64,000 nt of DNA from Acidobacteriota bacterium. Its GTDB lineage: Bacteria; Acidobacteriota; UBA6911. The notes below the pieces were generated by a model. The model was not told where the DNA came from. It saw only the letters and a program-made list of their open reading frames with translations, and did no database searches. The stretch is taken from assembly GCA_963664705.1 (NCBI GenBank), contig OY761556.1, positions 6,720,001 through 6,784,000 on the forward strand, given 5' to 3'. Positions 32,783 to 60,092 of the stretch are shown piece by piece; the first letter of the stretch is position 1; each line of letters opens with the position of its first letter. Both the position numbers and the translations under genes were made by a program.

Positions 32783-32807
32783 GCCGGGAGCGCCGCCGTC
32801 CCGGCTA

Positions 32808-36502: not shown

Positions 36503-36952
36503 ATGATCGTAAGAATGATTACTGGTCTCGCTTTTATGCTTTTGATTGTGAATGTACCGGGAGTTCGCTCCGAACAGTCCGGATCCTACGTGGGATCGGA
36601 AAAATGTGCGCCCTGCCATTCTGATCTTAATGACACCTGGAAGACTACACGCCACGCCAAGGCCATCGAAAGCCTGAAAAAATCGGGGCAGGAAAAATTG
36701 CCCGCGTGCGTGAAATGCCACGTCACAGGCTTTGAAAAAGACGGCGGCTTTATCGATTATGAGCTGACACCTGAGATGGCCGGTGTTCAGTGTGAAGTCT
36801 GCCACGGTCCGGGCAGCGCGCATATTGCCGGGCCCTCGGCCAAAAATATTACAAAGGATCCAGGGGCTGCCTTGTGCCGGCAGTGTCACACCCAGGGCCA
36901 GGATCCCGGATTCAACTATGAAGTCAAAGTCAAGAGTGTGCATGGCAAGTAG
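36503..36952 (+). CDS. tetraheme c-type cytochrome (c554-like)
   Basis: Four CxxCH motifs (CAPCH, CVKCH, CEVCH, CRQCH); YVGSEKC and GVQCEVCHGPGSAH; signal peptide. Confidence 0.92.
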   Translation: MIVRMITGLAFMLLIVNVPGVRSEQSGSYVGSEKCAPCHSDLNDTWKTTRHAKAIESLKKSGQEKLPACVKCHVTGFEKDGGFIDYELTPEMAGVQCEVCHGPGSAHIAGPSAKNITKDPGAALCRQCHTQGQDPGFNYEVKVKSVHGK

Positions 36953-37003: not shown

Positions 37004-37747
37004 ATGAAAGGTGGAAAAGCCATGTCGGCCTTGGGGCGTGTCCTCTGGGTTGGTCTGATCTTTGCCGGACTGTCCTGTGCTTATGGCACTGCGGCGGAAG
37101 GCTTTCTCAAAGCAACGCCGGAACAGCTCGATACCGGGACGGTTCCGGAAGGGAAAACGATTGAAGTCGTGGTCAGCGTCCAGAATGTCTCGAAATCGCC
37201 GATCGAAATTACCAGCGTGCGGACCAGTTGAGCATGCACCGAAGCTATGCTTGGAAAGCATACACTCAACCCGAACGAAAAAACCGATCTCAAAGTAGTC
37301 TATCCGACCGCCGGACGGCCCGGGCCATTTGAGAAGAAGATCACTTTTACCACCAATGTCCCCGAGCATGAAAAAGTTGAAATCTTCATGATGAAGGGGG
37401 AAGTCCAGGAAGCGCCCGGAGCAAAAATTGTGGTTCTGCCCCGCAAGGTCGTACTGACCGCCGCCGAACGCAGCGCCGGGAAAAAGCAGTCCTTTGCCAT
37501 CACCAACGAGGGAAGTCTTCCGTTGGTCATCACCTCGATCCGATCCAAGGATGGCAAAAACGTTTACCTGGACGGTTCCAAGGCCGGGAACCTTACGGTG
37601 GAACCGGCGCAGACCAAGAATCTGGAGCTTCAGCTGCCAGGCAACAGCAGCGATAAGGAGGAGAAGGATTATATCCTCTTCTTCTCCAACGCCAAAAATG
37701 CCGGCGAATCCGGGCTCTTTGTCATGCTGCAATACCAGGCGCCGTAA
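37004..37747 (+). CDS. DUF1573-like exported selenoprotein (247 aa; Sec at TGA 37229-37231, motif TS-U-ACT)
   Basis: ORFs 36977..37231 and 37247..37747 are in the same frame; TGA falls at the first Cys of the family xSCGCT motif; SECIS-like hairpin follows. Confidence 0.8.
37246..37262 (+). promoter_or_regulatory. SECIS-like hairpin
   Basis: TATGCTT-GGA-AAGCATA perfect 7-bp stem; G-led loop 21 nt after UGA. Confidence 0.7.
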
Positions 37748-37960
37748 TGCATCGATGACGGGTGGAATTTGTGGCTCTGCAAGGCGGACAGCCACGAATT
37801 CCACCCGTTTCCATTTTCAGCCAAAACCTTCGTCGATAGTTGTTTCCAGCGCACAGCCAATCAACCGTGTCCTGTCCTGCTCCAAGATTCCGCGCTCCCA
37901 CCCTGGAGATAATTCTTGACCCGTCCCAATGCAATCCCTTACATTGATTATTATAGGATA

Positions 37961-37977
37961 TGACATATCGTATAGGA
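37961..37977 (+). promoter_or_regulatory. operator-like motif (probable IclR site) downstream of TTGACC-N18-TACATT
   Basis: TGACATATCGTATAGGA is the exact reverse complement of 41683-41699; extra TATAGGA half-site 19 nt upstream. Confidence 0.7.
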
Positions 37978-38056
37978 AACATACGATGATCGGGCAGTGC
38001 CTTGTGAGGGTGTTGCCTGAATTGAGGGATTAGAAACCTGAATAAGAGGTGCAAGC

Positions 38057-39841
38057 ATGAAGGTTAAGGCAATCAGCATATCGATTGTTTTGATCGCGAG
38101 CTTTTTAGCGGCGGGTGCATGGGCAGCGGATGCGGCGAAAATCGTCGTGATGAATCCGCGGGGCATCCAGCCTGAAATCCGCAAGATTCCGATGGCAAAA
38201 CGCCAGGCGACGCTCGACGACAAAACAGTCTACATCGTAGATACGAAATACCCGAACACGAAACCTTTCGTTGAAGCGCTGCTTGCGGCGCTGAAAGCCA
38301 AGTATCCGAAGACCACGTGGGTGGTGAAGGAAAAGCTCGGCGGATACATGGATGATGATCCGGCGCTGTGGAAGGAAACCAAAGAGAAAGCCGCCGCTGC
38401 CATCGTCCTGGTGGGGCATTGAAGCAGCTGCTCGCCGGCAGTTGTCGGCCATGCAGTGACACTGGAAAGAATGGGCATCCCCGCGGTACCGATGATCACA
38501 GCGCGTTTCAAAGAGCTGGTAACGACGATCTCGTACAAAAAAGGGATTCCGAACATGCGGATCACCTATACGCCGCATCCCATCACCGACAGACCCCGGG
38601 ATCTTTGCGACAAGTATGTGCAGGGCAACGATCCGAACAGCGGCCAGCCGATGCTGGAGCAGATCTATGGAGCGCTGACGAAGCCTCTGTCGGCGGAAGA
38701 CGCCAAAGCCGGCTTCCTCAAGCGAGATGCGCGCCCGAGGCTGTTGCCTCCGGACACGCCGGAAAACCTGCTGGAATACTTCCACGAACACGTCTTCACC
38801 GACGGCAACCCGATCATTCTCCCGACCGAACAGAAGGTGGCGGAAATGCTGAAAGCCACCAGCCGCAAGCCGGATGAATGGGTCGGCCAGATGCGTCCCT
38901 CTCCTCCCCATGAAGCCTGGTACTACACGGTGGAAATGGTCGCCGTGAATGCCGTCATGGCGGGAGCCAAACCGGAATACTTCCCCACGATCCTGGCGAT
39001 TGCCTCCAAGGGTTTGACCTCGATGTTCAGTTCGACTTCGTCGTTTGCCCGCATGGTCGTCGTCAACGGCCCGGTGGTGAAGGAAATCGGCATGAACACC
39101 AGCATCGGAGCACTGGGTCCGAACAACCGGGCCAACTCCTCCATCGGCCGCTGCTGGACGCTGATCTCCAAGAACCTCGGCGGATCCGGGAAACCGGGAG
39201 AAACCTACCTGGGCAGCCAGGGGAACCAGTTGAACTACAACAACCTCTGCTTCCCGGAAACGGAAGAAGGGTTGCCGGCAGGATGGAATCCGTTGTCGGT
39301 ACAGAAGGGTTTCAAGAAGTCCGACAGCGTGGTCAGCCTGTTCAGCGGCTGGAGCTTCAACGATATCGCCTGGTACTCGCCGCTGCCGCAGCATGAAGTC
39401 ATCCGCGGCTGGCTGGAACATTTCTTCTCGTTCGGGACGACGCAGGCAACACTGGTGCTCGATCCGATTGTGGCGGCCGACGTAGCGAACATCGGTCACT
39501 TTGCGACGAAGGAAGCCTTTGCCAAATGGCTGGCAGACAACACCGGGACCCCTGGCTGGCTGTACTGGTCGCAGAATGCCGATGCGCTGAAGCAGGCGAA
39601 GGATGGCGTGGAGCCCTATGCCACCTGGTACAAACAGGGCATGGGCGCCGTGGTGCCGGCTTCCCGCTATAAACGCGATGGTGCGGTGCCGGCGAGGAAC
39701 ACATCATTCATGGCCTCGAAGGACAGCGGCGAGCCGACCAATTCGCTCGAAATCGTGGTAACCGGCGGCGGGACGAACACGTTCTGGTCAGGCGGCGATT
39801 TCGGCTATGCGGGCAGCGCTTCCGTGGATCTCTGGAGATAG
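38057..39841 (+). CDS. exported UGSC-type selenoprotein 1 (594 aa; Sec122 at TGA 38420-38422, motif GH-U-SSC)
   Basis: ORFs 38057..38422 and 38456..39841 are in frame with no other stop between; signal peptide; TDGNPIILPT and VAVNAVMAG domain. Confidence 0.9.
38434..38449 (+). promoter_or_regulatory. SECIS-like hairpin
   Basis: GCCGGC-AGTT-GTCGGC beginning 11 nt after UGA; lower stem CTGC/GCAG. Confidence 0.75.
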
Positions 39842-39854
39842 GAGGAACGATCAC

Positions 39855-40421
39855 ATGAAAAACAGATTAATGATAGCTGCAATGGCGCTGTTGGGATTGG
39901 TCGCATGCCTCCAGCCTGTCATGGCGCAGGAGAACACGCCCACGAATCCGGTTGCCGTAAAGGTGCCGCTGAAATCGATGGTCGAACTCGGGTCGGTGTA
40001 TACCAACATCTATGACATCACGATCACGGTACTTGAAACTGTTCGCGGCAATGCGGCGCTTGAACAGCTCAAGGCGGCGGATCCGAATGTCAAGGCGCCG
40101 GCAGCGGGCTTTGATTACGTGCTGGCACGCGTCAAGTTCGAACTCAAGGGGCGCTATGTCAGCGACAACCTGTCGTTTGATCTCGGAACCGAACCGCTGC
40201 AGTGGGTTTTGCTGTCGGGCGCGGATCTGACGGAATATGACCGGGTATCACTGACGGTTCCCAAGCCTGCGCTGGCAGGCATTGTGAAACCCGGCGGTTC
40301 GATGGAAGGCTGGGTGGGCTTTGCCGTTTCTCAGAAAGACGCCAAGCCGGTGATGGTATTTGATCCGGATACCGGCGGCGCCACCGGGCGCGGCAAAACT
40401 CTCTTCTTCAAGTTGTATTAG
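39855..40421 (+). CDS. exported DUF4352-like (Ig-like) partner protein 1
   Basis: Signal peptide; ITVLETVRG..PAAGFDYVLARVKFE..GGSMEGWVGF; paralogue of 45647..46180. Confidence 0.75.
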   Translation: MKNRLMIAAMALLGLVACLQPVMAQENTPTNPVAVKVPLKSMVELGSVYTNIYDITITVLETVRGNAALEQLKAADPNVKAPAAGFDYVLARVKFELKGRYVSDNLSFDLGTEPLQWVLLSGADLTEYDRVSLTVPKPALAGIVKPGGSMEGWVGFAVSQKDAKPVMVFDPDTGGATGRGKTLFFKLY

Positions 40422-40438
40422 TAGATAAACTGAAAGGG

Positions 40439-41284
40439 TTAGTGGTCGGCAAAGCGCTGGCCACTAACCTGCCCCCGCATTCTCAGCTGCGCCGCAGCTT
40501 TGGCGCACCTCTGACCAAAAAGCGCCATTTTCTCCTTCGTCATTCTGAATGCAGGACCGACGATCGACAGCGTCGCCACGACATGCTCCTCACCGTCAAA
40601 GATGGGGGCCGAGACCGCGCTGATTCCATCCTGAAACTCTTCGAAGTCCATCGCGTATCCCAGCGTTTTAACGGATTCGAGCTCTTTTCTATATGCCCGC
40701 GCGTCCGTGATGGAATGCTTTGTATTGGCCGGAAGCCCTTCGCGTTTGATGATCGTGTTGACAAGTTCTTCCGGCATCCACGCCAGCACGGCCTTGCCGT
40801 TTGATTTGTTGATCACGGAATCCGTTGTTCCTATCGGCGGGGATACCCGAAGCTCAATCAGCGGTTCGACGGCTTCCACAATAACCATCCTGGTTCCGCT
40901 CAAAACCGCCAGGTTGGCGGTTTCTCCACTGAAGTCCGACAGATCCTTCAGTACGGATTTTGCCGACCGGCTGACATTCAGATTGTCCAGCGCCGCCTGG
41001 CCGCACCGGGCCAGCGCGATTCCAAGAGAATAGCGTTTGGTCGTCTCATCGCGATTCAGGAATCCGTGGTGACTCAGGGTTATCAATATTTTGTGAACGC
41101 TGCTTTTGTGATAACCCGTTGCCGCGGCAATTTCAGCCAGCGTCAACTCTCTGGTTCCGGTCGCCAACATCAACATAATGCGCGCAGCCCTGTCTACAGC
41201 AGGAACGGTGTATATGGAACTATCGTCTTCTTTCGCTTTGGGAGAATGGCTGAGAGCTTTTTTCACGGCTTTATCCTTTATCAA
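40439..41284 (-). CDS. IclR family transcriptional regulator
   Basis: VPAVDRAARI, TLAEIAAATGYHKSSVHKIL, GETANLAV and GYAMDFEEFQDGISAVSAPI motifs. Confidence 0.95.
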   Translation of the reverse strand: MIKDKAVKKALSHSPKAKEDDSSIYTVPAVDRAARIMLMLATGTRELTLAEIAAATGYHKSSVHKILITLSHHGFLNRDETTKRYSLGIALARCGQAALDNLNVSRSAKSVLKDLSDFSGETANLAVLSGTRMVIVEAVEPLIELRVSPPIGTTDSVINKSNGKAVLAWMPEELVNTIIKREGLPANTKHSITDARAYRKELESVKTLGYAMDFEEFQDGISAVSAPIFDGEEHVVATLSIVGPAFRMTKEKMALFGQRCAKAAAQLRMRGQVSGQRFADH

Positions 41285-41663
41285 GAAAAGAGTCTAGCAT
41301 GATCTACGCTCCGTCGCTATCCTGCCCTGAAAACCGGCTTCCTTGCGTATGCGTGCAGGCGGAGAAGGGCCAGGCGTTTTTTTTATGCCTTCAACTGGAT
41401 AAAAAAGCCGATGGCTAGCGGCCGCGGATGGGCGCCATGACGGCCCCGAAGGAGGACCATCGATTCCCAAACCCCGCGATAGAAAAATTGAAAACGGAAC
41501 GTCTATCCCTCGGCAAAAAATTAATTCCTGTCTGCGCTGCGCGGAATTCCCGGCGGAGTTGTCTCTTTGAGGCAGATTCCACGAGCGTCATAAGGCTGCA
41601 TTCCTCATCTTTATCCGAACACTACCAGCGGATTTGAGTTGACTTTAGAGTCTCCTCGTGGTG

Positions 41664-41699
41664 TCCTATACAATATAAGATATCCTATACGATATGTCA
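41664..41699. promoter_or_regulatory. tandem operator-like palindromes upstream of the AOR gene
   Basis: TCCTATACAATATAAGA (41664-41680) and TCCTATACGATATGTCA (41683-41699); consensus TCCTATA-N3-TATAGGA. Confidence 0.72.
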
Positions 41700-41733
41700 A
41701 TGGTTCAATTGCAAAAGGGACAAGGAGACGGAT

Positions 41734-43779
41734 ATGAAGGGCGGATTTACCGGCAAGATACTTCGAGTAAACCTGACTCAAAAGAGCATCGGCAAAATCG
41801 ATACGGCCCAGTACGAATCATTTGGTGGCGGGCATGGAATCGGTTCGGCGGTTTTCTTTGACCTTGTCGGCGATCAACTGCCTTTCGACGCTTTCGATCC
41901 GAGGAATCTGATCATCATGATGGCTTCTCCGTTTGCCGGCACATTCATGCCGGGATCCGGAAGATGCGAAGTGCAAGGGCTGGGCCCGATGCTCTACCCT
42001 GTGGAGTGGTTTGCCCACAGCAACTTCGGCGGGCGTTTCACGGCGCAACTGAAATTTGCGGGTTGGGACGGCATTGTGGTGGAAGGCGCTTCCGAGGATC
42101 CGGTCTGGATCAATATCGTCAACGACAAAGTCACGATAGAGAGTGCGAGCGGTATCTGGGGAATGGATACCTGGGATACGCAGCAGGAAATCTCGCGACG
42201 CGTGATCCCCGGGCTCAGGCCGGGCGAGTGGGCCGAATTGGCAGGCGATGTCGCGACGACGCAGGTTCCGGCTGTGGTTTGCTGTGGCCCCGCGGGAGAG
42301 ACCCGCAGCCGCCTGGGCGCTCTTCTTCATGGACCCGGATCGCAGGCCGCCCTGTGTGGCTTCGGGGGTGTCTTCGGTTCAAAGAAGCTAAAAGCAATCA
42401 GCGCCATCGGGACGGGAAGCGTGCCGATTGCGGATCCTAAAGCTTTCATGGATGCGCGGCTGTGGTATCGGCAGTTCCAGTGGGACGTGGACAGTCCGCG
42501 GGAAGCGGAGCGATTCAGTACGCGCGCATGGTCGCATTGCAGCGGCCGGCCCAGCGGCGGCAATACGCTCAATAGTCAGCTGCCTCTTGTGCCGGCCCGC
42601 GTCACGGCGTGCGCCTCGTGTCCAAGGGCTTGCCGCATGCGCCTGGCTTCAGCGGAGAGCAATGAGTCCGTTTGCGCGGGGACCATGGCCGTCAGGCTTC
42701 AGGGCGGAGACCAGAAGCTGCTGCGCCAGGCTAATGACCTGATGCAGAAGATGGGGCTGGGACACTGGCAATTCATGCCTCTGCAGGCCTATATCCAAAA
42801 CCTGTATTCAAGGGGAATTCTGGGGAAGGGGAAGAAGATCGATTGCGATCTCCCGTTGGACCAGATTGGAACGATGGGTTATGTCGATACGCTCATGCGA
42901 AAAATCGCCAGCCGCCAGGGAATAGGCAATGATCTCTCCGAGGGCTGTGCGAGGTTTGCCGAGAAGCACGGCCTGTACAAAGAGGATGTGAACAGCGGCG
43001 TTCTAAACCTGGCCTATTGGGGGACGCGTGACCATTATGATCCGCGGATCGAGGTGGAATGGGCGTTTGGCTCGATTCTCGGCGAGCGCGATCTCATGCT
43101 GCACTCGTTTGCCAATCATAATTTCCATTGGATGGCGAACTCAGGTGACCCTTATCTGACCGCCGAGGAGGCTGCCCGTCTCTATTCGGAAGCGCTGGTT
43201 CCCTATAATGGCGATACCTTCCTGGCCGACTTCGGCGACGGCCCCACCGGCATCTACTCCGATTCAAAAGTCAAAATGGTTGCCTGGGTCAAGCACTATG
43301 AAAAGTTCTGGATCGGGGCCGGCGGTTTTTGCGGCTGGCGATGGCCGCAAACCTTCACCAACAACACTGCCGACCGGCGCGGTGCCACACCGCATGCCGA
43401 GCCGAAATTCTGGAATGCAGTCACAGGGGATAACCGCAGCTTTGCCGACTACATGGAACTCGGCCGGAAAATCTATACGCTGGATCGCTCTATCTGGGTG
43501 CTTCAGGGAAGGCACCGGGATATGGAAGTTTTTCCTGATTATGTTTATGACAAGAAATCCCAGGGACTCCTTTTGCCTATGTATGTGGATGGGAAGTGGA
43601 CCTATGCGACCGGGGCTGGCCGAACCCTGGATCGTGCGAAAGTGGAAGACTTCAAAACAAGGTTCTACAAATTCGAGGGCTACAACAGCAGCAATGGTTA
43701 TCCGACACGGGATACTCTCGAAAAGCTGGGCTTGAAAACAGTCGCGGATCAGCTTCAAAAGAAAGGCCGGCTTGGATAG
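41734..43779 (+). CDS. aldehyde:ferredoxin oxidoreductase (W/Mo-bis-pterin) family protein
   Basis: GGFTGKILRVNLT, SNFGGRFTAQLKFAGWDGIVVEG, GFGGVFGSKKLKAI, CASCPRAC and GYPTRDTLEKLGL motifs. Confidence 0.92.
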   Translation: MKGGFTGKILRVNLTQKSIGKIDTAQYESFGGGHGIGSAVFFDLVGDQLPFDAFDPRNLIIMMASPFAGTFMPGSGRCEVQGLGPMLYPVEWFAHSNFGGRFTAQLKFAGWDGIVVEGASEDPVWINIVNDKVTIESASGIWGMDTWDTQQEISRRVIPGLRPGEWAELAGDVATTQVPAVVCCGPAGETRSRLGALLHGPGSQAALCGFGGVFGSKKLKAISAIGTGSVPIADPKAFMDARLWYRQFQWDVDSPREAERFSTRAWSHCSGRPSGGNTLNSQLPLVPARVTACASCPRACRMRLASAESNESVCAGTMAVRLQGGDQKLLRQANDLMQKMGLGHWQFMPLQAYIQNLYSRGILGKGKKIDCDLPLDQIGTMGYVDTLMRKIASRQGIGNDLSEGCARFAEKHGLYKEDVNSGVLNLAYWGTRDHYDPRIEVEWAFGSILGERDLMLHSFANHNFHWMANSGDPYLTAEEAARLYSEALVPYNGDTFLADFGDGPTGIYSDSKVKMVAWVKHYEKFWIGAGGFCGWRWPQTFTNNTADRRGATPHAEPKFWNAVTGDNRSFADYMELGRKIYTLDRSIWVLQGRHRDMEVFPDYVYDKKSQGLLLPMYVDGKWTYATGAGRTLDRAKVEDFKTRFYKFEGYNSSNGYPTRDTLEKLGLKTVADQLQKKGRLG

Positions 43780-43854
43780 CCGATAGGAAATATGTCGAAC
43801 TGCCGATACGCTGGCTTCGAGGGGCGGCTGCCCCAAGTGTAGAGTTCCTCCTGG

Positions 43855-43902
43855 ATGCGTGCGGCGCGTGACCAGAAGTAGTCGGTCACGCGCTGCACGC
43901 AT
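43855..43902. terminator. 19-bp hairpin between convergent genes
   Basis: ATGCGTGCGGCGCGTGACC-loop-GGTCACGCGCTGCACGCAT. Confidence 0.7.
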
Positions 43903-43912
43903 TGCCTCCAAA

Positions 43913-45631
43913 TCATCTCCATTTATCGACGGACATGCTGGATGTGTACCGCAGGTTTCCTGCCTGGAAACGCGCCTGTGTCTGGCCGCCCGCGACTACA
44001 ATCGAGATATCCTCTTTTCTGAGGAAGCGAGGGATCATGGCGTCATCCGGAAGCTTGAACCAGGAAGCAAAGGGCTCGACTCCCTTTTGAGCGCGAGGCA
44101 GATCAAAGGTGAGGATAAAGCTCTCATCCTTGTAGTCGCGCACAGAGTGTACGGCCTTGGTGTAGAGCCAGTCGATGAGCTTCTCTTTGTTGTTGTAGCC
44201 TTGCTCCTTCAGAGCTTTGGCGATGAGGGGGTCGCAAACGACCGTGGCTCCGAACATGCCGGTAAAATTATTGATCACGCTAAGAAACTGCTCGTCATAG
44301 CGTGGCTTCACCGAGATGCCGCCTCCTTTCGCCACCTGGCCCGGCACGATCCCCAAGCCTGTGAAAATGCTGATGACGCTTTCTTCCGGTTTATAGCCGA
44401 GCTGGACGCTCAGTGAATTCCACGGACTGTCCGCTTCGTTTTCGGCTATGACCAGGTTGTTGTAGTTGAGATTGTTCCCGGTGGAACCGAGGTACGTTTC
44501 CCCTGCGATTCCTCCGCCGGCCAGGTTCCTGGACATTATTGTCCAGGCTCGCCCGATCGTTGCATTGGCCTGGCTGAAAGGTCCCAATGCGCCGACCCCA
44601 TAATGCATCTTTATCTGGTCGCGGATAGGACCATTGACTACGACAGAGTAGACAAAAGAATTGGTGGAGCTGTAGAGCGAGGCCTGTCCATTGGCGGCCA
44701 GCGCCAGGATAACGGGGAAGTACTCCGGTTTTGCTCCTGCCATGACGGCATTGGCGGCCACCTGTTCCACGGTGTATTCCCACGGGTCAAAGGCGCCCCC
44801 CGCCATTCTTCCCACAACCTCTTCGGGACGATGGCTGGTTCCTTTCAGCATGGCTGAGACTTTTGCTTCGGTGGGCAGGACAACCGGGATGTAGTCGGTC
44901 ATTCCGCTGTCGATGAAGTTTTGCTGCAGCCGATCGGCCGTGTCCGGTGCGAGCAGCCTTGGATTTGGAGACGGCTTCAGGAATCCGGTTTTCTTTTCTT
45001 CTTCCGTAAGCGGTTTGGTCAGGGCACTGAGGATCTCCTGCATTACCGGTGTGCCCGTGACCGGATCGTTGCCTTCGATGTCACGACGCATTTCCTGGGC
45101 TGTTTTGCCAAAAACGGGGTGAGGAACAAACGTAAACCGCTCGCCCGGCATGCCTCGTTTATAGGCGTTGCCTTTAGCCAGCGCAACAAAACTCCTGGTA
45201 ACGATAGGCGCAGTGGGTTTGCCGAGCTTTTCCAGTTCGAGGCAATGGCCGACGACCGCCGGCGTGCAGGTGCTTCAATGCCCGATTGCCATTACCACTG
45301 CATCCCCCTTTTGCCGGATTTCCTCCCACAACTGCGGATCGTTTTCCGCATAGGCACCTGCCTTCTGCCGGAATTCGAGTTTTACCTTGGGCCTGTTAGT
45401 GGAAAACCAGGACATCATTTCCTTCAGGAATGTATCCGCGCCGACGTAGCGTACATCCACGAAGTAGACGGTCTTGCCGTCCAGTGTGTCGAGGCGCGGC
45501 GCCATCGGGACCAGCCGGATAGGCGGCGGCGTTCCTTTCGGGTTCAGGACTGTTATCTTGGGTTCCTGCGCCCTTAGGGAAGAAAAGCTGAGTGCCAGTA
45601 ATGCTGCGATCAATACTTTCCTGAGATGCAT
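43913..45631 (-). CDS. exported UGSC-type selenoprotein 2 (572 aa; Sec119 at TGA 45277-45275, motif GH-U-STC)
   Basis: ORFs 45275..45631 and 43913..45151 are in frame; the 41 intervening codons (STCTPAVVGHCLELEKLGKPTAPIVT...) are open and homologous to paralogue 1. Confidence 0.9.
45248..45263 (-). promoter_or_regulatory. SECIS-like hairpin
   Basis: GCCGGC-GGTC-GTCGGC beginning 11 nt after UGA, same stem as 38434-38449. Confidence 0.75.
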
Positions 45632-45646
45632 AAAAACCCCCGTAGA

Positions 45647-46180
45647 TCAGTAAAGACGAAATGCCGGACCCATCCCCGAATGGCTGAGAAGATGGACATC
45701 GGCGTGGAAAGCCATAAAAGGAGTCCGATCGCTCTTTGCTACCAGGAGAACCACCCATCCTTCTGCGATGTCGCCGGAATGCATGACGCGGCCCAATTTC
45801 GGGGATGGCAGAACGGCTGTTGCCGCCGGATATTGAATGGAGCCGTCGGAAGAAAAGGCAATGAACTGGTCTTCATTCAACGGGTAGAGCTTGTCTCCCG
45901 GTTTCCCTCTTTCCCGGTATTCGAACCGGATGCGTGCGAGTACGTACTCAAGTCCTGCCGGAGGTTGCGTGTTTGAAGCGCTTTCCTTTTTTAGCAGGTC
46001 CCATGCTTTTTCCCCGCGTCGCATTTCGACCAGTGTGATCCTGGCATCATAAGCCTCCATCGCATTGGCGTAGGCATCGCCAAAAGTGATGACGGTGGAA
46101 GCGGGCGTCCCGATCGGATGGGGATCCATGATGCCCGGAAAGGAAAACAGAAAGAAGAAGATCGAGTATAGATGGTTCAC
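45647..46180 (-). CDS. exported DUF4352-like partner protein 2
   Basis: ITLVEMRRG..PPAGLEYVLARIRFE..GDIAEGWVVL; stops 15 nt before selenoprotein 2. Confidence 0.75.
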   Translation of the reverse strand: MNHLYSIFFFLFSFPGIMDPHPIGTPASTVITFGDAYANAMEAYDARITLVEMRRGEKAWDLLKKESASNTQPPAGLEYVLARIRFEYRERGKPGDKLYPLNEDQFIAFSSDGSIQYPAATAVLPSPKLGRVMHSGDIAEGWVVLLVAKSDRTPFMAFHADVHLLSHSGMGPAFRLY

Positions 46181-46300
46181 AGTTTTTCATGGACCGGGAG
46201 TCGCGCGACAGACCCGGTAGTTCCTTCGCTGAAGCGAGGCATTCCAGAGCCTGTCTCTGTGCCGGTCCGTTCCTCCGCAAAAAGCTAAATTTTGTCTGAA

Positions 46301-47596
46301 TCAGCGCGTCGCATTGTCCGCCCCTGCATCCAGCGTGAATCGCCCGTTCAGCGCGTCGATCCTGATTCTCCCACCCTGGGCAATATCGCTGCCCAGGATG
46401 CCATCCAACTTGATGAAGGTGGCCAGATCGGAAGGACGCGTCGCGATTTCCTGCATCTTCAAACGGTAGCCGGACAGGAGCAGATCCAGCGATGGAATCA
46501 CTTTGGCCTTCGAGTCATCCCATCCGCCGGCAGAGCCGGTTCTTATGTTTTCTGATTTCACTCCCGCAGCCGTTATTTTCTTGAAGATATTTTCCCGGAT
46601 ACTGCTGCTCGATGCTCCGGTATCCAGGCCAAACCGGAGTTTTCGCCCGTTGCCGGCTTGAACGGTGACGGCAGGATATCCGATCCAAAAGAAATTTCGC
46701 TGCAGGCCGGCGTCTCGGATCGGTTGCCGGAAGACGGCCCGCTTGTTGGCGTAATCCACGGTGATATCCATGTGCTGGATGGCATTCCACCCGATGATCC
46801 CATCTATTTTCACAAAAGGAATGAACCCGAACAGCTTAATTTCGAGATCCTTCTTTTGAAGAATAATGGCCGGATGGTTTCGAATGCGGATCCCACCGAT
46901 TTCCATCTCATCGATAATTGCGGGCTGGCTGCTGATTTCCTTCGAAGTGGCGGTCTGGGTGCGTTCCTGGCGTTCGTTGGCCGGACGCACCTTGCACTCG
47001 GGGGCAACGTCGGAGGAAAGAACACTGACGCCTGCGCCTGTATCCAGCCAAAAATTCCTCCGCTGTCCGTTAACCGTCACCGGGACGATTGGGGAGCCGG
47101 TGCGGCTTAGCGCTATGGACAGCTCAACCGGTTTGGGAGGAAACGCATAGGTCTCGCCGGGCGCCTTGCTGTAGGCTTCCGTGAGCGCCTTATCGTCGAC
47201 CTCTTCCGCCATGGGACCCTGTGCCAGTTTCTGGTGATCGGTCCATTTGGACTGATAGAAGAGCAGGGACGAAAGGAGTTTTGTGGAGTGTTTCCTCGTC
47301 AGAGGATCCGCCGACTGGTCCTGCAAAGCCCGAAGCTTTGTTTCGGCGGCTTCCATTTCCCCTGTTTCTATCAGCTTCAACGCTTCAGCAAAGCTGCGTT
47401 GCGCTTCGTCTCCGCCGGCATATGCGAGATCCAGGTTTTCCATCGCTTCCCAAAAAGAGGAGTATGGAACCGGTGCCGGTGCCTGCGGCGTCAGCGCCGG
47501 ATCAAGTTTTTCGATATGAAGTTTCTTCGACGAACACCCGCCGATTGTGATGCAGCACAGTAATAAGGGAATCGGGAAACACGATTTGTAATTCAC
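46301..47596 (-). CDS. two-domain retropepsin-like aspartyl protease, probable lipoprotein
   Basis: FWLDTGA and FGLDTGA motifs, DGIIG/DGILG; IGGC lipobox; start codon uncertain. Confidence 0.85.
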   Translation of the reverse strand: MNYKSCFPIPLLLCCITIGGCSSKKLHIEKLDPALTPQAPAPVPYSSFWEAMENLDLAYAGGDEAQRSFAEALKLIETGEMEAAETKLRALQDQSADPLTRKHSTKLLSSLLFYQSKWTDHQKLAQGPMAEEVDDKALTEAYSKAPGETYAFPPKPVELSIALSRTGSPIVPVTVNGQRRNFWLDTGAGVSVLSSDVAPECKVRPANERQERTQTATSKEISSQPAIIDEMEIGGIRIRNHPAIILQKKDLEIKLFGFIPFVKIDGIIGWNAIQHMDITVDYANKRAVFRQPIRDAGLQRNFFWIGYPAVTVQAGNGRKLRFGLDTGASSSSIRENIFKKITAAGVKSENIRTGSAGGWDDSKAKVIPSLDLLLSGYRLKMQEIATRPSDLATFIKLDGILGSDIAQGGRIRIDALNGRFTLDAGADNATR

Positions 47597-47781
47597 GGTT
47601 CGAGCCTCTGGGTTCTCAGCATTTTGAACAGCCGCCAAAATCGTGGATTTTACACCCAAACGGCGGTCGCGCGCGCCCGGCCGTATTATTGTTTTCCTCT
47701 ATACGTTTCTATCCTGCAATTGAGGAATTTTCAGCTTGACCCCGCCGGACCTGTTAATCTAAATTAATATTGTTAAAGATA

Positions 47782-47798
47782 CTCCATATCGTATAGGA
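47782..47798 (+). promoter_or_regulatory. operator-like motif downstream of TTGACC-N18-TAAATT
   Basis: CATATCGTATAGGAAA at 47785-47800 is identical to 37964-37979. Confidence 0.7.
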
Positions 47799-48015
47799 AA
47801 TACAGCTCAAACAGATCCGAGAAAATGGTTGCAGGGGGCAGCAGGGGAGAAGTCATCCCCGGACGCCCGATGGATGACGGGAAAATCCAGATTTCGCAGT
47901 ATAGGCAACGATTTCGGACTCTGCGGCAGCAGCATAGTTTGTACCCGGAATGATGTGCAGGCTCCCTTGGGTGGTTAAGGAGCCTGGCCTCCTCCAGTTA
48001 GAAAGGGGAATGGTA

Positions 48016-51000
48016 ATGAGGAAGGTTTCTATCACGGCTACCTTGATACTGTGCTTTATCCTGTCTATGAATGTTTTTGGTCAGACAAACGCCTCCCTTA
48101 GCGGAACGGTTGCGGATGGTTCAGGGGCCATTGTTATTGGCGTGGCGGTCAAAGCAACGAATGACAACACGGGTGTTGTCACTTCTGTTGTCAGCAACGA
48201 AGCCGGTATCTACAATTTTGCCAGTCTTATGGCAGGTATGTACACGGTCAGTGCTGAGAAGGCCGGGTTCCGAAGCAAAACCTACACCAAAGTGGAACTG
48301 GGAAGCGGTGCACAGCGACGGCTTAACTTCACACTGGAAGTAGGCGGTGTGGCAACACAGGTGGAGGTTTCCACCTCCGCGGAAGATCTGATCCTGGAAT
48401 CCAGTTCATCGGTCGGGGATGTTCTGATGGAGGATACCGTCAAGAACATGCCTCTGGTCAACCGAAATGCATTGGATCTCGTCAATGTCATGTCCGGTGT
48501 GGTCATGGCGGACGATACTATTTTCAATGCCAATGGATCTTCTTTTGCGGGAGTCAGTGCCGCGGGTGTGAATATTCAGCGCGACGGCATTGCGGTAAAC
48601 GATGTTCGTTATCCGACTGGTGTGAATGCGGCTACCCGCGTCAACCCGGATCTGGTCGGGGAATTCCGTCTCATCCTGGCTCCGGTGGATGCCGAGTCGG
48701 GACGCGGTAATGCGCAGATACAGATCTCCACCAAGTCCGGCACCAACCAGTACCATGGTTCGACGGTCTGGAATGTTCAAAACACGGCATTGGATCCCAA
48801 TACATGGGAGAACAATCGCAGCAGCATTGCGGCGCCCTGGCGGAATCAGCATGAGTGGACAATCAGCGCCGGCGGGCCGATCATCAAGAACAAAACGTTT
48901 TTCTTTGTCCTCTATGACGGCCAGGTGAACAAGATCCGCGCGCCGTTCAATGTTCGCTCGCTGACGCCGTGCGCACAAAGAGGCATCTTCCGGTATTATG
49001 ATAACTGGAGCAACGGCAATTACCTGTCTACCGTATCGGATGCCGGCGCCTCCTATCCGGCCGCTCCGGTTGTGGACAAAAACGGAAATCCTACTCCGCC
49101 CCCGTATCTGAATCCCTCAAATGTCAACAGCGGCCCGCACAATGGCGTCCTCCGATATGCCAGCGTGTTTGGCAAACTGCTGAATACGCCGACAGCGCCG
49201 GATTGCAGTGACGCAAATATTCAGGCAGGCACGGCGTGGGACTCGAACCGGAAGGCAATTGATTCAACCGGTTACATTGCTGCGTTCATGAAGAGAATGC
49301 CGCAAGTGAATAACTACGATATTGGCGACGGGCTGAACACCGCCGGAGCCCGCTGGACTCGTACCCTATATGGTACGGACAATTCTTATGGAGTTGGCGA
49401 AGACACCTATCGACGCCAGATCAACCTTCGTATTGATCACAACATCAATACCAAACACCGGATCAACGGATCCTGGAGCTGGGAGCGATCCTGGGCGGAT
49501 AACGGATTCAAGACCTGGCCGAACGGTTTTGGTGGGCTGACCATTCGCCGCCCGATGGTATTGACGGTTAACTTTATCTCGAGCCTTTCCCCGACCATGC
49601 TCAATGAAGCCAAGTTCGGGATGTCGCGGACCGGAACCAACACGTTCTCGCCCTATGACAACCCTGAGACTGGCGAGCAGCTTCGCAAGGTTCTGCCCCA
49701 GATTAACGGATACGGCATTGCGGTAGGGATGGGGGCGGGAGCCGTTGCATTCAAACCGGACGATGGTTCTACCGGAGGAAGCAACGATTTTGGCGGGCGA
49801 GGCAATATCTCGAACTCGGCCATCGATACCAGTCCCAGATACTCCTTCGGGGACACCTTCTCCTGGACCAAAGGTCTGCATTCCTTCAAGTTCGGCGGCG
49901 AGTATCGACGGGCAACTTCGAACTCCCTGACCCGGTTCACCGGCGCTTTTGGTGCCGGCACCACGAGCTACGCCTATGTTTCCGGCGGCGACACCACCTA
50001 TTCTCCTGTCGCGGGGATCACCAGCACCAACATGCCTGGTCTGGCCGGCGATACATCGGGGGGCAACCGCTCGGTTATGGAAGACCTGCTGAATTTCCTT
50101 TCCGGGTCCGTAGCTCAGGTGAGGCAGTGGCGATTCATCAACAATGCAACTCAAGCCTCGTTCAACGATCCTCTCAAAGAAGATCAGTTCATCCGCAATT
50201 TCTTCCAGCAGGAATTCAGTTTTTTCCTTAAAGATGACTGGAAGATAAGGCCGGATCTTACACTCAACCTCGGTGTCCGCTTTGACTACTTCGGAGTCCC
50301 CCATCTCGACAATGGTTTGACCAATGGATTCGTGGGTGGATCGGGTACTCTTTTTGGCCGTTCCGGGACCGATTTTGACGGCTTCATGAAACCTGGGGAG
50401 AGAGGTTCCGATACCAAACTGCAATTTATCGGACCGGGCTCGCCGAATCCTGATGCCATCCTGTATCCGCGCGATACCAACAACTGGGGCCCTGCGATCG
50501 GGTTTGCCTGGCAGATCCCATGGTTCGGTAAAGACCGAGCCACGCTGCGTGGAGGATATCAGATCAGTTACATAGGAAATAACGGCCGGGCGGCCACCAT
50601 CCAGAACGCATCCGGGATGGCGCCGGGTACTTCCTATCTGAATTCCTATACTCCGAGCACTACCCAGACCTACCTTGATATGAACAATCTTTCGGCTCTT
50701 GTTCCCGTGATCCCGATGCCCGGCAATATTACGCCGGCTATCGCTATTTTTCCGGTAACGGATCGAAAATCGGATATCACGGCTTTTGAGCCGGGATACA
50801 AATCACCGTATATTCAGAACCTGACGCTGGCGCTGACCACCAACGTTACTTCAAAAATTACCGTCGATGTTCGGTACATCGGCACTCTGAGCCGAAGTCT
50901 CTTCTCGAACTTCAATATCAATCCGTCGAATTTCACCACGAACGGGCTGCTGGAAGCATTTGATGCGGCGCGGGCCGGCGGTGAATCGACGCTGCTGAAT

Positions 51001-52131
51001 AACCTGCTGATGGGGCAGCGCCTGGGCGCTACTGAAAAGGTAGTGGATGGAAAGACGTTTACCGGCGCCGCAGCCCTGAGAGCTTCCAGCGCTTACGCCA
51101 GTGGCCTCGGGTATACCACGAGGATCCGGCAGCTCCTGGCAAACGGACAATATTCCACTTTGGCGACATACCTGAATTACCTGGGCTCCACGCCGGGCCA
51201 GCTTATTCGCCAGAATGGTTTTGCCGAAAACTTCATCAAAACCAATCCTCAATTCAACAACGTGTACTTTGAGGGCAACGCAGGCCATGCCAACTATCAC
51301 TCCATGCAGGCGCAGGTGACATTGCGGCCTACCGCCACCTTGAGCGTACAGTCGACGTACACATGGTCGAGAAACCTCGGGATCACCGGTTCCTATACGG
51401 ATCCTCTGGATCGCAGGGGCGACTATTCTTTGTTGGCGTCCGATCGTACTCATGCCTGGGTGACCTACGGGAATTTTGAGTTGCCGTTCGGTCCGGGCAA
51501 GGCGTACTTCAAGGGTGCGTCCGGACCGGTGGCGAAGGTGATTTCGGGATGGCAATTAGGCTGGCTTACCAGAGTTCAGAGCGGTCAGCCGCTGAGCATC
51601 ACCTCGCAATCCATGCTTTATGGATTGGGCGTCCCGGACCTGGTCGGCGATTTTGACTTTGATCAGGTCGGAGTCACCTGGCAAGAGGGTGCAAGGAAAG
51701 GCAACTACTTCAATAATCGGTACACTTCGGTTAAAGATCCGCAGTGCTCCAACATCTCTTCAGACCTGCAGGCATTTTGCACGCTTTCCGCAATTGCTTT
51801 GGCCAGCGATACCTCGAAATATGTTTTCGTGAATCCGTCGCCGGGGAAGAGAGGCAACTTCGGACAGAACAGGATACGGACGAAGATAAGATCGTCCGTG
51901 GACACGTCGATGACCAAGGTTGTCAAATTGGGTGAGCGCAAAAGCTTCAGCCTGCGCGTTGATGCCAAAAACATCCTGAACCACCCCGATGCATCCGGTA
52001 CGCTGGGTAGTTCCGGAGCACGTATCGTCTTCCCGACTGCTCCTACCGTGGCTCTCGGCAATGGCTTCGGCGACCTGACCTATAAGGTCGGCGGGCGTAC
52101 GTTCCAGTTCATGGCGCGTTTCGAGTTTTAG
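48016..52131 (+). CDS. Oar-like TonB-dependent receptor (paralogue of 25135..29370)
   Basis: Signal peptide; MPLVNRNALDL, FFLKDDWKIRPDLTLNLGVRFDY and C-terminal GRTFQFMARFEF. Confidence 0.92.
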   Translation: MRKVSITATLILCFILSMNVFGQTNASLSGTVADGSGAIVIGVAVKATNDNTGVVTSVVSNEAGIYNFASLMAGMYTVSAEKAGFRSKTYTKVELGSGAQRRLNFTLEVGGVATQVEVSTSAEDLILESSSSVGDVLMEDTVKNMPLVNRNALDLVNVMSGVVMADDTIFNANGSSFAGVSAAGVNIQRDGIAVNDVRYPTGVNAATRVNPDLVGEFRLILAPVDAESGRGNAQIQISTKSGTNQYHGSTVWNVQNTALDPNTWENNRSSIAAPWRNQHEWTISAGGPIIKNKTFFFVLYDGQVNKIRAPFNVRSLTPCAQRGIFRYYDNWSNGNYLSTVSDAGASYPAAPVVDKNGNPTPPPYLNPSNVNSGPHNGVLRYASVFGKLLNTPTAPDCSDANIQAGTAWDSNRKAIDSTGYIAAFMKRMPQVNNYDIGDGLNTAGARWTRTLYGTDNSYGVGEDTYRRQINLRIDHNINTKHRINGSWSWERSWADNGFKTWPNGFGGLTIRRPMVLTVNFISSLSPTMLNEAKFGMSRTGTNTFSPYDNPETGEQLRKVLPQINGYGIAVGMGAGAVAFKPDDGSTGGSNDFGGRGNISNSAIDTSPRYSFGDTFSWTKGLHSFKFGGEYRRATSNSLTRFTGAFGAGTTSYAYVSGGDTTYSPVAGITSTNMPGLAGDTSGGNRSVMEDLLNFLSGSVAQVRQWRFINNATQASFNDPLKEDQFIRNFFQQEFSFFLKDDWKIRPDLTLNLGVRFDYFGVPHLDNGLTNGFVGGSGTLFGRSGTDFDGFMKPGERGSDTKLQFIGPGSPNPDAILYPRDTNNWGPAIGFAWQIPWFGKDRATLRGGYQISYIGNNGRAATIQNASGMAPGTSYLNSYTPSTTQTYLDMNNLSALVPVIPMPGNITPAIAIFPVTDRKSDITAFEPGYKSPYIQNLTLALTTNVTSKITVDVRYIGTLSRSLFSNFNINPSNFTTNGLLEAFDAARAGGESTLLNNLLMGQRLGATEKVVDGKTFTGAAALRASSAYASGLGYTTRIRQLLANGQYSTLATYLNYLGSTPGQLIRQNGFAENFIKTNPQFNNVYFEGNAGHANYHSMQAQVTLRPTATLSVQSTYTWSRNLGITGSYTDPLDRRGDYSLLASDRTHAWVTYGNFELPFGPGKAYFKGASGPVAKVISGWQLGWLTRVQSGQPLSITSQSMLYGLGVPDLVGDFDFDQVGVTWQEGARKGNYFNNRYTSVKDPQCSNISSDLQAFCTLSAIALASDTSKYVFVNPSPGKRGNFGQNRIRTKIRSSVDTSMTKVVKLGERKSFSLRVDAKNILNHPDASGTLGSSGARIVFPTAPTVALGNGFGDLTYKVGGRTFQFMARFEF

Positions 52132-52145: not shown

Positions 52146-52191
52146 GTGGAATTCGTGGCGTTTTTTACCCTTTTTTCGCCACGAATTCCAC
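52146..52191. terminator. 15-bp perfect hairpin
   Basis: GTGGAATTCGTGGCG-loop-CGCCACGAATTCCAC. Confidence 0.65.
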
Positions 52192-52294
52192 AAAATATTC
52201 GGTTTTTGATTTATAAGTTAACCCGTGAAAAAATTGGGATAGATGGATTCGAAATCCGGGAACAGTCGAGAACCCCGGGGAACAGGGTTATTCA

Positions 52295-52717
52295 GTGAAG
52301 AAAAACATAGTTTGTATTGCAGGCAGTTTGTTGTTGGCATGGCTTGTCGTGTCCGGTATCAGCGCCGCGGCCCAGGGATCTGTGCCCCGCATCAGCATCC
52401 AGGAATTAAAAAAGATGATGGATAGCGGGAAGCCGGTCACGATTATCGATGCGCAACCCAAGGATGTTTATAAAGAAGGACACATCAAAGGGGCGATCTC
52501 TTTGCCATGGAGATCCCAGATACCTTTGGAGGATGTGTGGAATATCCCCAAGGACAATCCCATCGTTACCTATTGTGATTGCGGGCCGGGCGAATCGGAT
52601 AGCGCGGATGTTGCGGCTCAGCTGATCCAATACGGTTACGATGATGTTAAAGTACTGGGAGATCCTTCCATTAAGGGCTGGAAACAGGCGGGCTATCCAA
52701 TGGAGAAGGGCAAATAA
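52295..52717 (+). CDS. exported rhodanese-like protein
   Basis: Signal peptide; IIDAQ, GHIKGAISLP, IVTYCDCG and GWKQAGYP motifs. Confidence 0.88.
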   Translation: MKKNIVCIAGSLLLAWLVVSGISAAAQGSVPRISIQELKKMMDSGKPVTIIDAQPKDVYKEGHIKGAISLPWRSQIPLEDVWNIPKDNPIVTYCDCGPGESDSADVAAQLIQYGYDDVKVLGDPSIKGWKQAGYPMEKGK

Positions 52718-52855: not shown

Positions 52856-54538
52856 ATGCGGAAGATTGTTATGGTGACAATCATGATGGCGATCGCCGTC
52901 ATGTTTGTACACGTTCCATACAAAGCTCCACTGATTGCTAAGGACGCTCCTCAGCAGTTCGAGGTGCTGAGTCCGTGGGCAGAAGTGGATCCGATACCCC
53001 TGAGGGGGGTATCGCCAAGATTGGATACGATAAAGGGCAAAAAGATTGGATTGTTCGCCAATTTCAAACGTGCGGCCAAGCCCATTGCCGATGAGATTGA
53101 CAAGCAGCTGAAGGCCAAATATCCCGATATCCAGACCAGCCTTTTCCATTCCACTTTGCCCAATGTGAATGAGGCGGAGACCGTCAATAAGGAAAAGTTT
53201 GCTGCCTGGGCCAAGGGAGTTGATGCCGTCATCGGCGTGGTGGGAGATTGAGGGTCCTGCACAAAGTTCCTCGCTTACAACGGAGTTGCAATCGAGGACT
53301 TTGGCAAGCCGGTCGTGATACTGGCTAATCGCGGTTTCGTAACAGACGCTCACTCTGCTGCTTCCGGTAAGGGCCTTCCTGGCCTTCGTGTTGTTGGGGA
53401 AACTATTGCCTGCGAATCCACTGTTGCTTCCGACATCGAGTCCGGTGTCAGAGGTTCATTGGACGAGGCTATTGCTGCCCTGACCAAACCATTAACGCCT
53501 GAAGAAAAATCTCCACAGGTTAATACGGAGAAACCTCCCACCATCATCTTCAAGGGAAGCCTGGAAGATGTGAACCAGTTCTTCTATCGCAAAGGATGGA
53601 CGGATGGCCTGCCAGTCTTCGCACCCACAGAGGAAGCTGTGGCGGAGATGATGAAGGGCACGGATCTGCCTGCGGATCATATGGTGGCCAAAATCATTCC
53701 GCGCATGGGCAAGGCTACAATCAAGAAGATTGCCGTAAATGCCGTAATGGCGGGTGCACTGCCTATCCACATGCCGGTTCTGATTGCAGCCGTCGAGGCT
53801 CTTTCGGATAAGAAGACCCGGTTTGATACCTTTGAGGTAAGCACAGGTTCATGGTCTCCTATGTTTATTATCAATGGTCAGATCCGGAAGGATATTCACA
53901 TCAACTGCAGTTCAGGCGCTCTCAGCCCCGGGAACATGGCCAATTCGGTTATTGGGCGTGCCGTGGGTTTGATCGTTAAGAACATCGGCGGTGCCCGCAA
54001 GGGCGTCGAAGATATGGGGACTATCGGAAACCCCGGCAAGTACTCCCTTGTTCTCGGCGAAAATGAAGAAGAAAGCCCGTGGGCTCCGTTGAGCGTCGAT
54101 CGTGGCTTTAAAAAAGAAGACAACACATTGACGGTTTTCTTCCCGAACAACTTCGGACTGGCAATTCCCTCCGCCACCAGCGCGCAGGGTATTGCGGACG
54201 GTCTGGTTTCCATGCAGATGCGTTCCCTGTCGGCGCTGGTTGTGATTCCTGATCACGCCAGGATTCTTGCCAATGAAGGGTGGACGAAGGAAAAGGTAAA
54301 AGAATACATCGCTCAAAAGACACCTGCCGGACCGAATACGCGAAGCCGCTCGGTTGGATTGAAAACCGAGGATTTCGTTCTTGTGGTTGCCGGCGGTCCG
54401 GGCACCTGGATGGGTGCTTACCGGAGTGCTGGTGGTTTTGAGAATGAATTTGTATCAAGAAAGATCCAGCTTCCCAAGAACTGGGATGCGCTGGTAGCCA
54501 AGTATAAGAACCTGGTTCCTGTATACGAGAAGTACTAG
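52856..54538 (+). CDS. UGSC-type selenoprotein 3, probably exported (560 aa; Sec132 at TGA 53249-53251, motif GD-U-GSC)
   Basis: ORFs 52856..53251 and 53315..54538 are in frame; intervening GSCTKFLAYNGVAIEDFGKPV is open; GWTDGLPVFAPT and IAVNAVMAG domain. Confidence 0.92.
53262..53303 (+). promoter_or_regulatory. SECIS-like hairpin
   Basis: Lower stem CAAAGTTCCTCG/CGAGGACTTTG with one bulged U; upper stem CAAC-GGA-GTTG; loop 30 nt after UGA. Confidence 0.72.
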
Positions 54539-60052: not shown

Positions 60053-60092
60053 TCTTTTATAGCCGGGAAATTGAGCGGTTTGATTTTTCAGC

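Follow-up and report, generated by a model that had tools for sequence, protein, structure and literature searches.

The window analysed here is the 64,000-nucleotide stretch at positions 6,720,001 to 6,784,000 of contig OY761556.1 of an Acidobacteriota bacterium (assembly GCA_963664705.1), and our subject is a set of paired 16-bp palindromes at the promoters of its selenoprotein, oxidoreductase and receptor genes, which are very probably the operators of an IclR-family regulator encoded among them. Coordinates are positions in the window unless prefixed G000:C1, where G000 is the source genome (6,894,879 bp); other G numbers denote genomes and L numbers fetched loci. The predicted regulator gene, iclR (40439..41266, minus strand, alternative start 41284), encodes a helix-turn-helix (HTH) that begins VPAVDRA and has the recognition helix HKSSVHK. 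On one side of it lie UGSC1 (38057..39841, plus strand), a UGSC-domain fusion selenoprotein of 594 amino acids with a signal peptide and an in-frame TGA at 38420-38422 (H-U-S-S-C), and DUFa (39855..40421, plus), a name coined here for an exported protein of no family that follows UGSC1 in all four of its near-identical copies. On the other side lies the large subunit of a W/Mo-pyranopterin oxidoreductase (WOR; 41734..43779, plus), which has no signal peptide and no adjacent small-subunit gene, followed on the minus strand by the selenoprotein UGSC2 (43913..45631, TGA 45277-45275), for which no operator of its own was found, and, upstream of UGSC2, by the DUFa paralogue DUFb (45647..46180); the membership of UGSC2 and DUFb in the regulon is uncertain. 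A third group on the plus strand comprises a TonB-dependent-type outer-membrane beta-barrel receptor (47950..52131, likely start 48010), an exported rhodanese (52295..52717) and the selenoprotein UGSC3 (52856..54538, TGA 53249-53251, D-U-G-S-C, post-TGA hairpin z -3.0). Two further plus-strand genes precede UGSC1, namely an exported c554-like multiheme cytochrome (36503..36952) and a DUF1573/OS_HP2-like selenoprotein (37004..37747, TGA 37229-37231, post-TGA hairpin z -3.0) that is present once in the genome, was split at TGA 37229 by open reading frame calling, and ends just upstream of the first operator. Neither has an operator in the window; in G023 and G025 the cytochrome has one upstream, and the DUF1573 selenoprotein lies within operator-led gene runs in G023, G025 and G044. 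Signal-like hydrophobic N-termini are present in 10 of the 12 proteins checked, the exceptions being WOR and IclR.

The sequence repeats that drew attention to this locus in the first-pass annotation are all in place: by string check of the window, 37961-37977 and 41683-41699 are exact reverse complements of each other, CATATCGTATAGGAAA lies at 47785-47800, and TTGAC begins at 37916, 41639 and 47736. The consensus then drawn from them, TCCTATA-N3-TATAGGA, departs from every one of the three main sites at three positions and had to be replaced by a 16-bp palindrome, RTHTC-N-TATA-N-GADAY, whose symmetry axis is the central TATA; the odd-length 17-bp unit is ruled out by these mismatches, by the 16-bp axis and by HTH residues typical of even-length motifs, discussed below. 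Against ATATCSTATASGATAT, the strong sites (O1) have no mismatch at 41680-41695, one at 47786-47801 and two at 37965-37980, and the first of these, ATATCCTATACGATAT, is the best palindrome, with seven of eight positions pairing. A weak partner site (O2) lies 19 bp upstream of O1 at all three promoters (37946-37961, 41661-41676 and 47767-47782), including the TonB promoter, where it had been overlooked when second sites were credited to two promoters; the supposed best copy at 41664-41680 is one of these weak partners read out of register.

The pairs occupy a consistent place relative to predicted promoter elements. Promoter 1 (37916..37945, plus) consists of a -35 box TTGACC (37916-37921), 18 bp and a -10 box TACATT (37940-37945); its O2 (37946..37961) begins directly after the -10 box and spans the predicted start, and its O1 (37965..37980, ATATCGTATAGGAAAC) lies at about +13 to +28. 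Promoter 3 (47736..47765, plus) has the same form, TTGACC, 18 bp and TAAATT, with O2 at 47767..47782 and O1 at 47786..47801 (ATATCGTATAGGAAAT). At both, O2 starts 0-1 nt and O1 19-20 nt past the -10 box, which would put O1 at about +13/+14 if transcription starts 7 nt past that box. In the interval between iclR and WOR, a near-consensus sigma-70 promoter faces iclR (41672..41700, minus; TTGACA 41700-41695, 17 bp, TATATT 41677-41672), matching at 11 of 12 positions, a grade found 65 times in the genome, or 0.18 times per 19 kb. Here O1 (41680..41695) forms the promoter spacer, with 38 bp between its end and the WOR start, while O2 (41661..41676) covers the iclR-facing -10 box and also a TACAAT, possibly the -10 box of WOR. 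This arrangement of O1 as spacer and O2 over the -10 box suggests that iclR is autoregulated through the pair at 41661-41695, and the minus-strand TTGACA box explains why the shared 17-mer starts with TGACA. The -35-like boxes proposed earlier stand in part: 18 bp beyond those at 37916 and 47736 there is a TANNNT -10, and no such element follows the TTGACT box at 41639 at a spacing of 17 or 18 bp. Their apparently uniform distance of 44-46 nt to the operator was a product of the 17-bp frame, the distances in the true frame being 49, 41 and 50 nt. A second plus-strand promoter considered at site 1, ATGACA-16-TACGAT, was dismissed as a 9/12 match at chance level (11 found, 11.7 expected).

Genome-wide, the motif is rare, which answers the earlier concern that it might be frequent at random. 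The 13-bp core ATATCGTATAGGA has three exact copies, at 37965 (+), 41683 (-) and 47786 (+), all within 10 kb, where an order-4 Markov model predicts 0.15. When the genome is ranked with a matrix built from 12 sites unlinked to iclR, four promoters come first (scores 21.7-22.8, next 18.5), three of them having been in its training set and 41680 outside it. When sites are scored as pairs at 19-bp spacing, the same four reach 36.0, 32.2, 26.4 and 22.4, with the next pair at 11.7, so that the regulon appears to be small; control spacings of 17-18 and 20-23 bp give at best 15.9. The fourth pair (G000:C1:4763216-4763250), absent from the training set of the matrix used in one genome scan, follows a promoter of the geometry TTGACC-18-TAAATT and precedes a UGSC1 paralogue (88% identical) and its DUFa partner. 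This promoter (G000:C1:4763235), the iclR-facing promoter and the fourth selenoprotein gene, that of the DUF1573 protein, had all escaped the first-pass annotation. The four promoter regions have no mutual homology beyond the operator. An operator-like 16-mer also occurs, with identical flanks and no partner site, in a four-copy repeat at G000:C1 220514, 2211808, 2523545 and 6056174, which is probably a mobile element. A genome match at 2643836, near two UGSC genes, was set aside: it falls within the coding region of an MFS gene and lacks a partner site, as do its orthologues in G039 and G044.

The operators recur in related genomes, and they do so before orthologous genes. The composite pattern TTGAC-N34-47-RTHTCNYATRNGADAY has 19 matches in 9 of the 51 genomes of the order, and the reversed control has none; apart from the source genome, matches occur in 8 of 29 members of the genus and 0 of 21 others. 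Two features not built into the pattern accompany it: among 60 offsets, the best second site lies at -19 in 14 of the 19 rows, at -20 in two, at +19 in one (a site common to two divergent promoters) and elsewhere in two, and TANNNT follows the -35 box by 17-18 bp in 13 of 19. Matches are found in 7 of 18 genus genomes with an IclR of the window protein's clade and in 1 of 11 without (G030). UGSC1 stands directly behind an operator in G030 and G044, and in G023 and G025 it is the fourth gene of an operator-led ferredoxin-WOR-AKR-UGSC1 run, in which the WOR is an orthologue of 84-85% identity. The rhodanese, of which G023, G025, G040 and G042 hold close orthologues, is directly behind an operator of its own in these four genomes and within a run in G044, often followed by the cytochrome and the DUF1573 selenoprotein; UGSC3 is behind operators in G023 and G044 and, after a TonB gene, in G025. 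Operator-led TonB receptors occur in G025 and G044, and cupin genes (G040, G042) and a sulfatase gene (G026) likewise stand behind operators. The order of these genes varies: in the closest relative, L145 (IclR 84% identical), UGSC2 leads straight into iclR, and WOR and UGSC1 are both missing from the interval, so that the gene order of the window is recent; L149-L151 show an operator followed by iclR and then UGSC1. The presence of the motif at orthologous promoters in shuffled gene orders, the check that had been proposed on orthologous upstream regions, supports co-regulation. As a separate observation, UGSC3 persists as a short 3' remnant between the rhodanese gene and iclR, with the operator kept, at L064 10727-10922 (G040), L111, L147 and L148.

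That the regulator is the adjacent IclR is suggested by several lines of evidence. The assignment of the neighbouring gene to this family holds: the protein, of 275-281 amino acids, exceeds the Pfam cut-offs for both PF09339 HTH_IclR (60.1 bits, cut-off 22) and PF01614 IclR_C (128.2 bits, cut-off 24), and it is one of four HTH_IclR proteins in the genome. In a quick tree it belongs to a 24-row clade (SH-aLRT 99) that is nearly confined to the genus; in a sample of the phylum, high-scoring members were found in one of three genus genomes and in none of 297 others, apart from two weak rows. With the 12-site matrix and the GTDB set, 9 of 23 clade iclR leaders score above the background 99th percentile, versus 1 of 14 in the outgroup (p 0.056). 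In a metagenome set of 80 loci, 68 of them with enough upstream DNA, 11 of 35 clade loci and 0 of 33 outgroup loci have a site no more than 450 bp from iclR (p 0.0004), some contigs duplicating genome loci and kin not being independent; strong sites number 19 in 215 kb of clade loci versus 0 in 368 kb of outgroup loci. Within the UGSC-linked IclR subclade, every one of the eight rows shows a pair in front of iclR or of its gene run (two of them weak, one via a metagenome contig), and among GTDB rows with a changed helix (AVDKA..HKSSVQR), none of four has one. The sites also match published operators: in the available part of PMC8222616, IclR tandem sites are typically 18-22 nt apart, even-length motifs prefer Pro1, Ala2 and Ser30, and 16-bp sites such as GTTTCATATATGAAAC in the supplement come from regulators whose HTH starts V/I-P-G-L-x-R-G. 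The window IclR has Pro1, Ala2 and Ser30, with the numbering transferred by eye from the HTH strings given there; the 16-bp sites seen there fit RTHTCNYATRNGADAY exactly, and the GT-12-AC geometry agrees with the published palindromes. With the main subgroup iv consensus quoted there, NGTYCRAW4TYGRACN, the outer bases and the centre agree and the inner TC-N does not; the 16-bp variant rows fit. Position, co-occurrence with one clade including its own leaders, and this match thus favour the earlier proposal of repressor sites near the transcription start that are probably bound by the adjacent IclR.

We therefore consider it highly probable that an IclR tetramer, sitting on O1 and O2 along one face of the helix, blocks four promoters together with its own, and that a small metabolite releases it. 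Bound to a pair of 16-bp palindromes across each transcription start, the regulator would keep four or five units off until release, namely the two UGSC1-DUFa units, WOR, TonB-rhodanese-UGSC3 and, probably, its own gene; binding, tetramer geometry, repression and ligand release are all predicted from family behaviour and from the position of the sites. Because IclR proteins include activators and dual regulators such as those of the PcaU/PobR type, and because several of the promoters have weak -10 boxes, activation or action in both directions might be entertained. This is, however, very unlikely: in 12 rows with a -10 box and a 49-50 nt spacing the sites start 0-1 and 19-20 nt past that box, other sites form the -35/-10 spacer, and none lies upstream of a -35 box. 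A different regulator, for instance of the GntR/FadR type, with iclR a mere neighbour, has a marginally better but still slight chance, inasmuch as the TATA-centred core resembles GntR-type motifs, a GntR-domain gene lies 1.3 kb beyond the operon of the fourth operator, and no clade IclR was detected in G030. Yet the 500 bp upstream of each of the six GntR-domain genes hold no site (best score 7.9), homologues occur in just one of all fetched loci, an outgroup locus, several lineages have the site in front of a stand-alone iclR gene, and its sequence agrees with published IclR operators, so that a GntR protein was rejected as the binder for failing the linkage test. That the repeats are chance or duplicated promoter DNA of no regulatory meaning we regard as practically negligible: local duplication does occur, UGSC1-DUFa being present in four near-identical copies, but the promoter flanks are not homologous, which rules out duplicated promoter DNA, and the 13-mer, the -19 offset and the clade statistics contradict both versions.

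The more serious competitor, possible though distinctly less likely than the pathway reading given below, accepts that IclR binds the operators but holds that the regulon is loose and recently assembled, promoter cassettes having moved before paralogues of large families without a single pathway. The families are indeed large, the genome encoding 35 UGSC proteins, 14 or more full-length WORs and 11 close TonB receptors; L145 lacks the WOR and UGSC1 genes at this position; the operator-led TonB receptors are not orthologues; and an orphan-looking promoter in G025 (2130-2194) points into the end of a gene on the opposite strand. Against such looseness, UGSC1 (G000, G023, G025, G030, G044), the 84-85% identical WOR (G000, G023, G025), the rhodanese (five genomes) and UGSC3 (G023, G025, G044) recur behind operators in different orders, and the rhodanese, cytochrome and DUF1573 selenoprotein have no close paralogue in the genome. 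Several observations weigh against a coherent IclR regulon as such. The GTDB leader test is weak when taken alone; the composite pattern was written after the sites had been seen, so that the match count and the symmetry score are partly circular; and the genomes are kin, with several metagenome contigs duplicating genome loci. G030 carries the operator before UGSC1 with no clade IclR found in its 800 contigs (93% complete). Within the source genome, a site lies directly upstream (within 450 bp) of only 2 of the 35 UGSC paralogues, and only two of the four near-identical UGSC1 copies have the operator. In relatives, the operator-led TonB receptors share no more than 42-43% identity with the window receptor, which does not set them apart from other paralogues. 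Locally, the WOR gene lacks a good -10 box behind the TTGACT at 41639, a hairpin lies between the TonB and rhodanese genes, whose operon link is predicted, and iclR is about 400 nt from the promoter that faces it, with a terminator-like hairpin between. Finally, sister IclRs use near-identical sites beside xanthine-dehydrogenase-type, cupin and CoA-ligase genes, and they differ from the UGSC-linked subclade in the ligand domain; the effector is therefore likely to be subclade-specific, and the substrate cannot be read from the motif.

Returning to a regulon held together by IclR, nearly every product carries a signal peptide, and the targets may thus be regarded as a periplasmic redox module. 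The receptor would import one organic compound, the selenoenzymes would act on it, and WOR, rhodanese and cytochrome would handle electrons or sulfur. The balance of sequence evidence tips, with some reservation, towards the targets forming one periplasmic pathway for an imported compound, and the earlier view of one inducible pathway whose effector would point to the substrate remains plausible. That the compound contains sulfur is our best single guess at the substrate, though a doubtful one, prompted by the rhodanese, the UxxC enzymes and the one sulfatase target. More speculative again, and on present evidence unlikely, is the full scheme of a selenium-dependent periplasmic pathway of anaerobic Acidobacteriota, in which UGSC enzymes would cleave the TonB-imported compound through a selenol intermediate, the rhodanese would take the sulfur, a Class V WOR and the c554-like cytochrome would link the pathway to respiration, and the IclR ligand would be the compound or its first product.

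The enzymes themselves belong to families of which little has been reported. All three UGSC genes of the window are single fusion genes with the UGSC domain PF24696 over cut-off and an in-frame TGA in the UxxC motif, and the genome has two SelA genes. A search of the PDB by sequence with UGSC1 gave no match. Its structure models (pLDDT 90 and 89) offered no substrate clue: the modelled N-domain matches many flavodoxin- or receiver-like folds non-specifically (best Z 10.4, rmsd 4.4, 140 aligned), and the modelled C-domain matches no fold at E <= 0.001 (best Z 5.4). UGSC function is described as uncharacterised, and UGSC selenoproteins as among the commonest environmental selenoproteins, in the parts of the literature available (PMC13188914, PMC2398784, PMC1976440), and surveys were the only UGSC literature found. 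The UGSC alignment kept 35 of 40 rows, five having been left out after a frame error in one of them. The source genome encodes 35 UGSC fusion paralogues, 31 of them with TGA, and the four near-identical UGSC1-DUFa cassettes (DUFa 96-99%) lie at G000:C1 2633620, 3995147, 4763530 and 6758057 with unrelated upstream DNA. Together with its WOR and TonB genes and some 30 xanthine-dehydrogenase-type matches, this amounts to a very large expansion of exported redox enzymes.

The window WOR, of about 680 amino acids, has AFOR_N and AFOR_C domains, and its best NCBIfam match is PRK09849, below cut-off (236 vs 868 bits), which we take to be the YdhV family. By sequence it appears closest to YdhV/Class V (clade 41) WORs. 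Cys314 is invariant in seven of seven relatives, and a loose alignment to 1AOR puts a Val/Cys of WOR at the position of the GPEYE motif, whose Glu is at the metal site of classical aldehyde:ferredoxin oxidoreductases. Small- or membrane-subunit genes are absent beside it and present elsewhere in the genome, and a 4Fe-4S gene with a twin-arginine-like N-terminus precedes the 84-85% identical orthologues in G023 and G025. A search with PF12849 could not separate tungstate-binding from other binding proteins. The ydh genes of E. coli reportedly touch sulfur metabolism, a lead that a literature look-up did not confirm. In the part of PMC13328260 available, Class V WORs are periplasm-facing, lack an assigned activity, make up more than 10% of the family and include one member inactive on 46 aldehydes; as a functional claim, the label AOR used in the first-pass annotation is not supported.

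What the shared operator offers is a way of singling out, among 35 UGSC paralogues and 14 or more of WOR, the few genes responsive to one signal, and the regulon would tie two orphan enzyme families, UGSC and Class V WOR, to one screenable ligand. Since IclR is small and soluble, so that its ligands can be sought in a laboratory strain even with the host uncultured, the question of the substrate becomes testable rather than answered; if the selenium-dependent pathway were true, a single ligand screen would yield a first substrate for UGSC proteins and Class V WORs alike.

Some further features deserve mention. The iclR leader (41285-41640, 355 bp) has no homologue in the genome or the fetched loci and contains a terminator-like hairpin at 41423-41406; its folding z is 0.10, and Rfam returned no riboswitch or known RNA in the window, this leader or the fourth promoter. 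Related GC-rich intergenic hairpins of the type GAATTCGTGGCG...CGCCACGAATTC at 52146-52193, 37760-37810 and 54548-54590 are possible REP-like or terminator elements. In the sister IclR clade, tandem GTYYCTTATAAGAAAC sites occupy the interval that separates iclR from a divergently oriented xanthine-dehydrogenase-type operon, with genes for CoA ligase and beta-oxidation nearby, at L074, L076, L077, L015 and L016 (G028, G050, G022, G034, G046), and constitute a second, predicted and undescribed regulon. The window also contains a second AFOR-family gene (GAPOR-like) with a metallo-beta-lactamase-fold protein and a 2-hydroxyacyl-CoA dehydratase set with two activators (57050-63935, minus), with no operator; a cluster of circularly permuted ATP-grasp, Alpha-E, DUF2126 and transglutaminase genes (11557-20910, plus); an integrase-core transposase (rve, HTH_21; 1284-2444, minus); and a repeat, some 100-500 bp long, of which the genome has dozens of copies (32780-33290).

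Compared with known systems, the window UGSC proteins resemble the described UGSC selenoproteins (PF24696, NF041046) in a domain over the Pfam cut-off, a TGA in UxxC and fusion to a large unknown domain; they differ in being exported, in having 35 paralogues in one genome, in standing under a defined predicted operator and in falling below the NF041046 equivalog cut-off (63-76 vs 125 bits). The WOR shares with Class V (clade 41) WORs such as E. coli YdhV, as far as described in the part of PMC13328260 available, its best NCBIfam family, its length and the 4Fe-4S gene before the G023 and G025 orthologues; unlike them, it lies far below the family cut-off and has no small- or membrane-subunit gene beside it, the likeness being one of profile score. 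The regulator has the HTH_IclR plus IclR_C architecture of BhcR, KdgR, IclR, AllR and PcaR/PcaU/PobR. It falls below the cut-offs of all the named NCBIfam subfamilies (BhcR, KdgR, IclR, AllR, PcaR), the best being BhcR (E 1.5e-54, 185 vs 350 bits), and its clade is nearly genus-confined; the effectors of known IclRs are not transferable. No report of an IclR-selenoprotein regulon was found in the open literature, subscription journals and preprint supplements lying outside the search, and the regulon content is undescribed; the operator itself belongs to a published IclR motif type. The present sites differ from the operators in the available part of PMC8222616 (Suvorova and Gelfand 2021) in phylum, 'Acidobacter' being absent from the supplement text, and in targets, which here are selenoproteins, WOR and a TonB receptor, with COG2414 not found in those supplements. 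They are closest to the even-length group-1 operators seen there, especially the 16-bp GTTYCATATATGRAAC sites of Csal_0134, Spro_3965, KPN_03368 and Burkholderia regulators, with which they have in common the 16-bp palindrome, the GT...AC ends, the AT-rich centre, the 19-bp tandems and the V/I-P start of the HTH, and which likewise sit before the regulator's own or adjacent genes.

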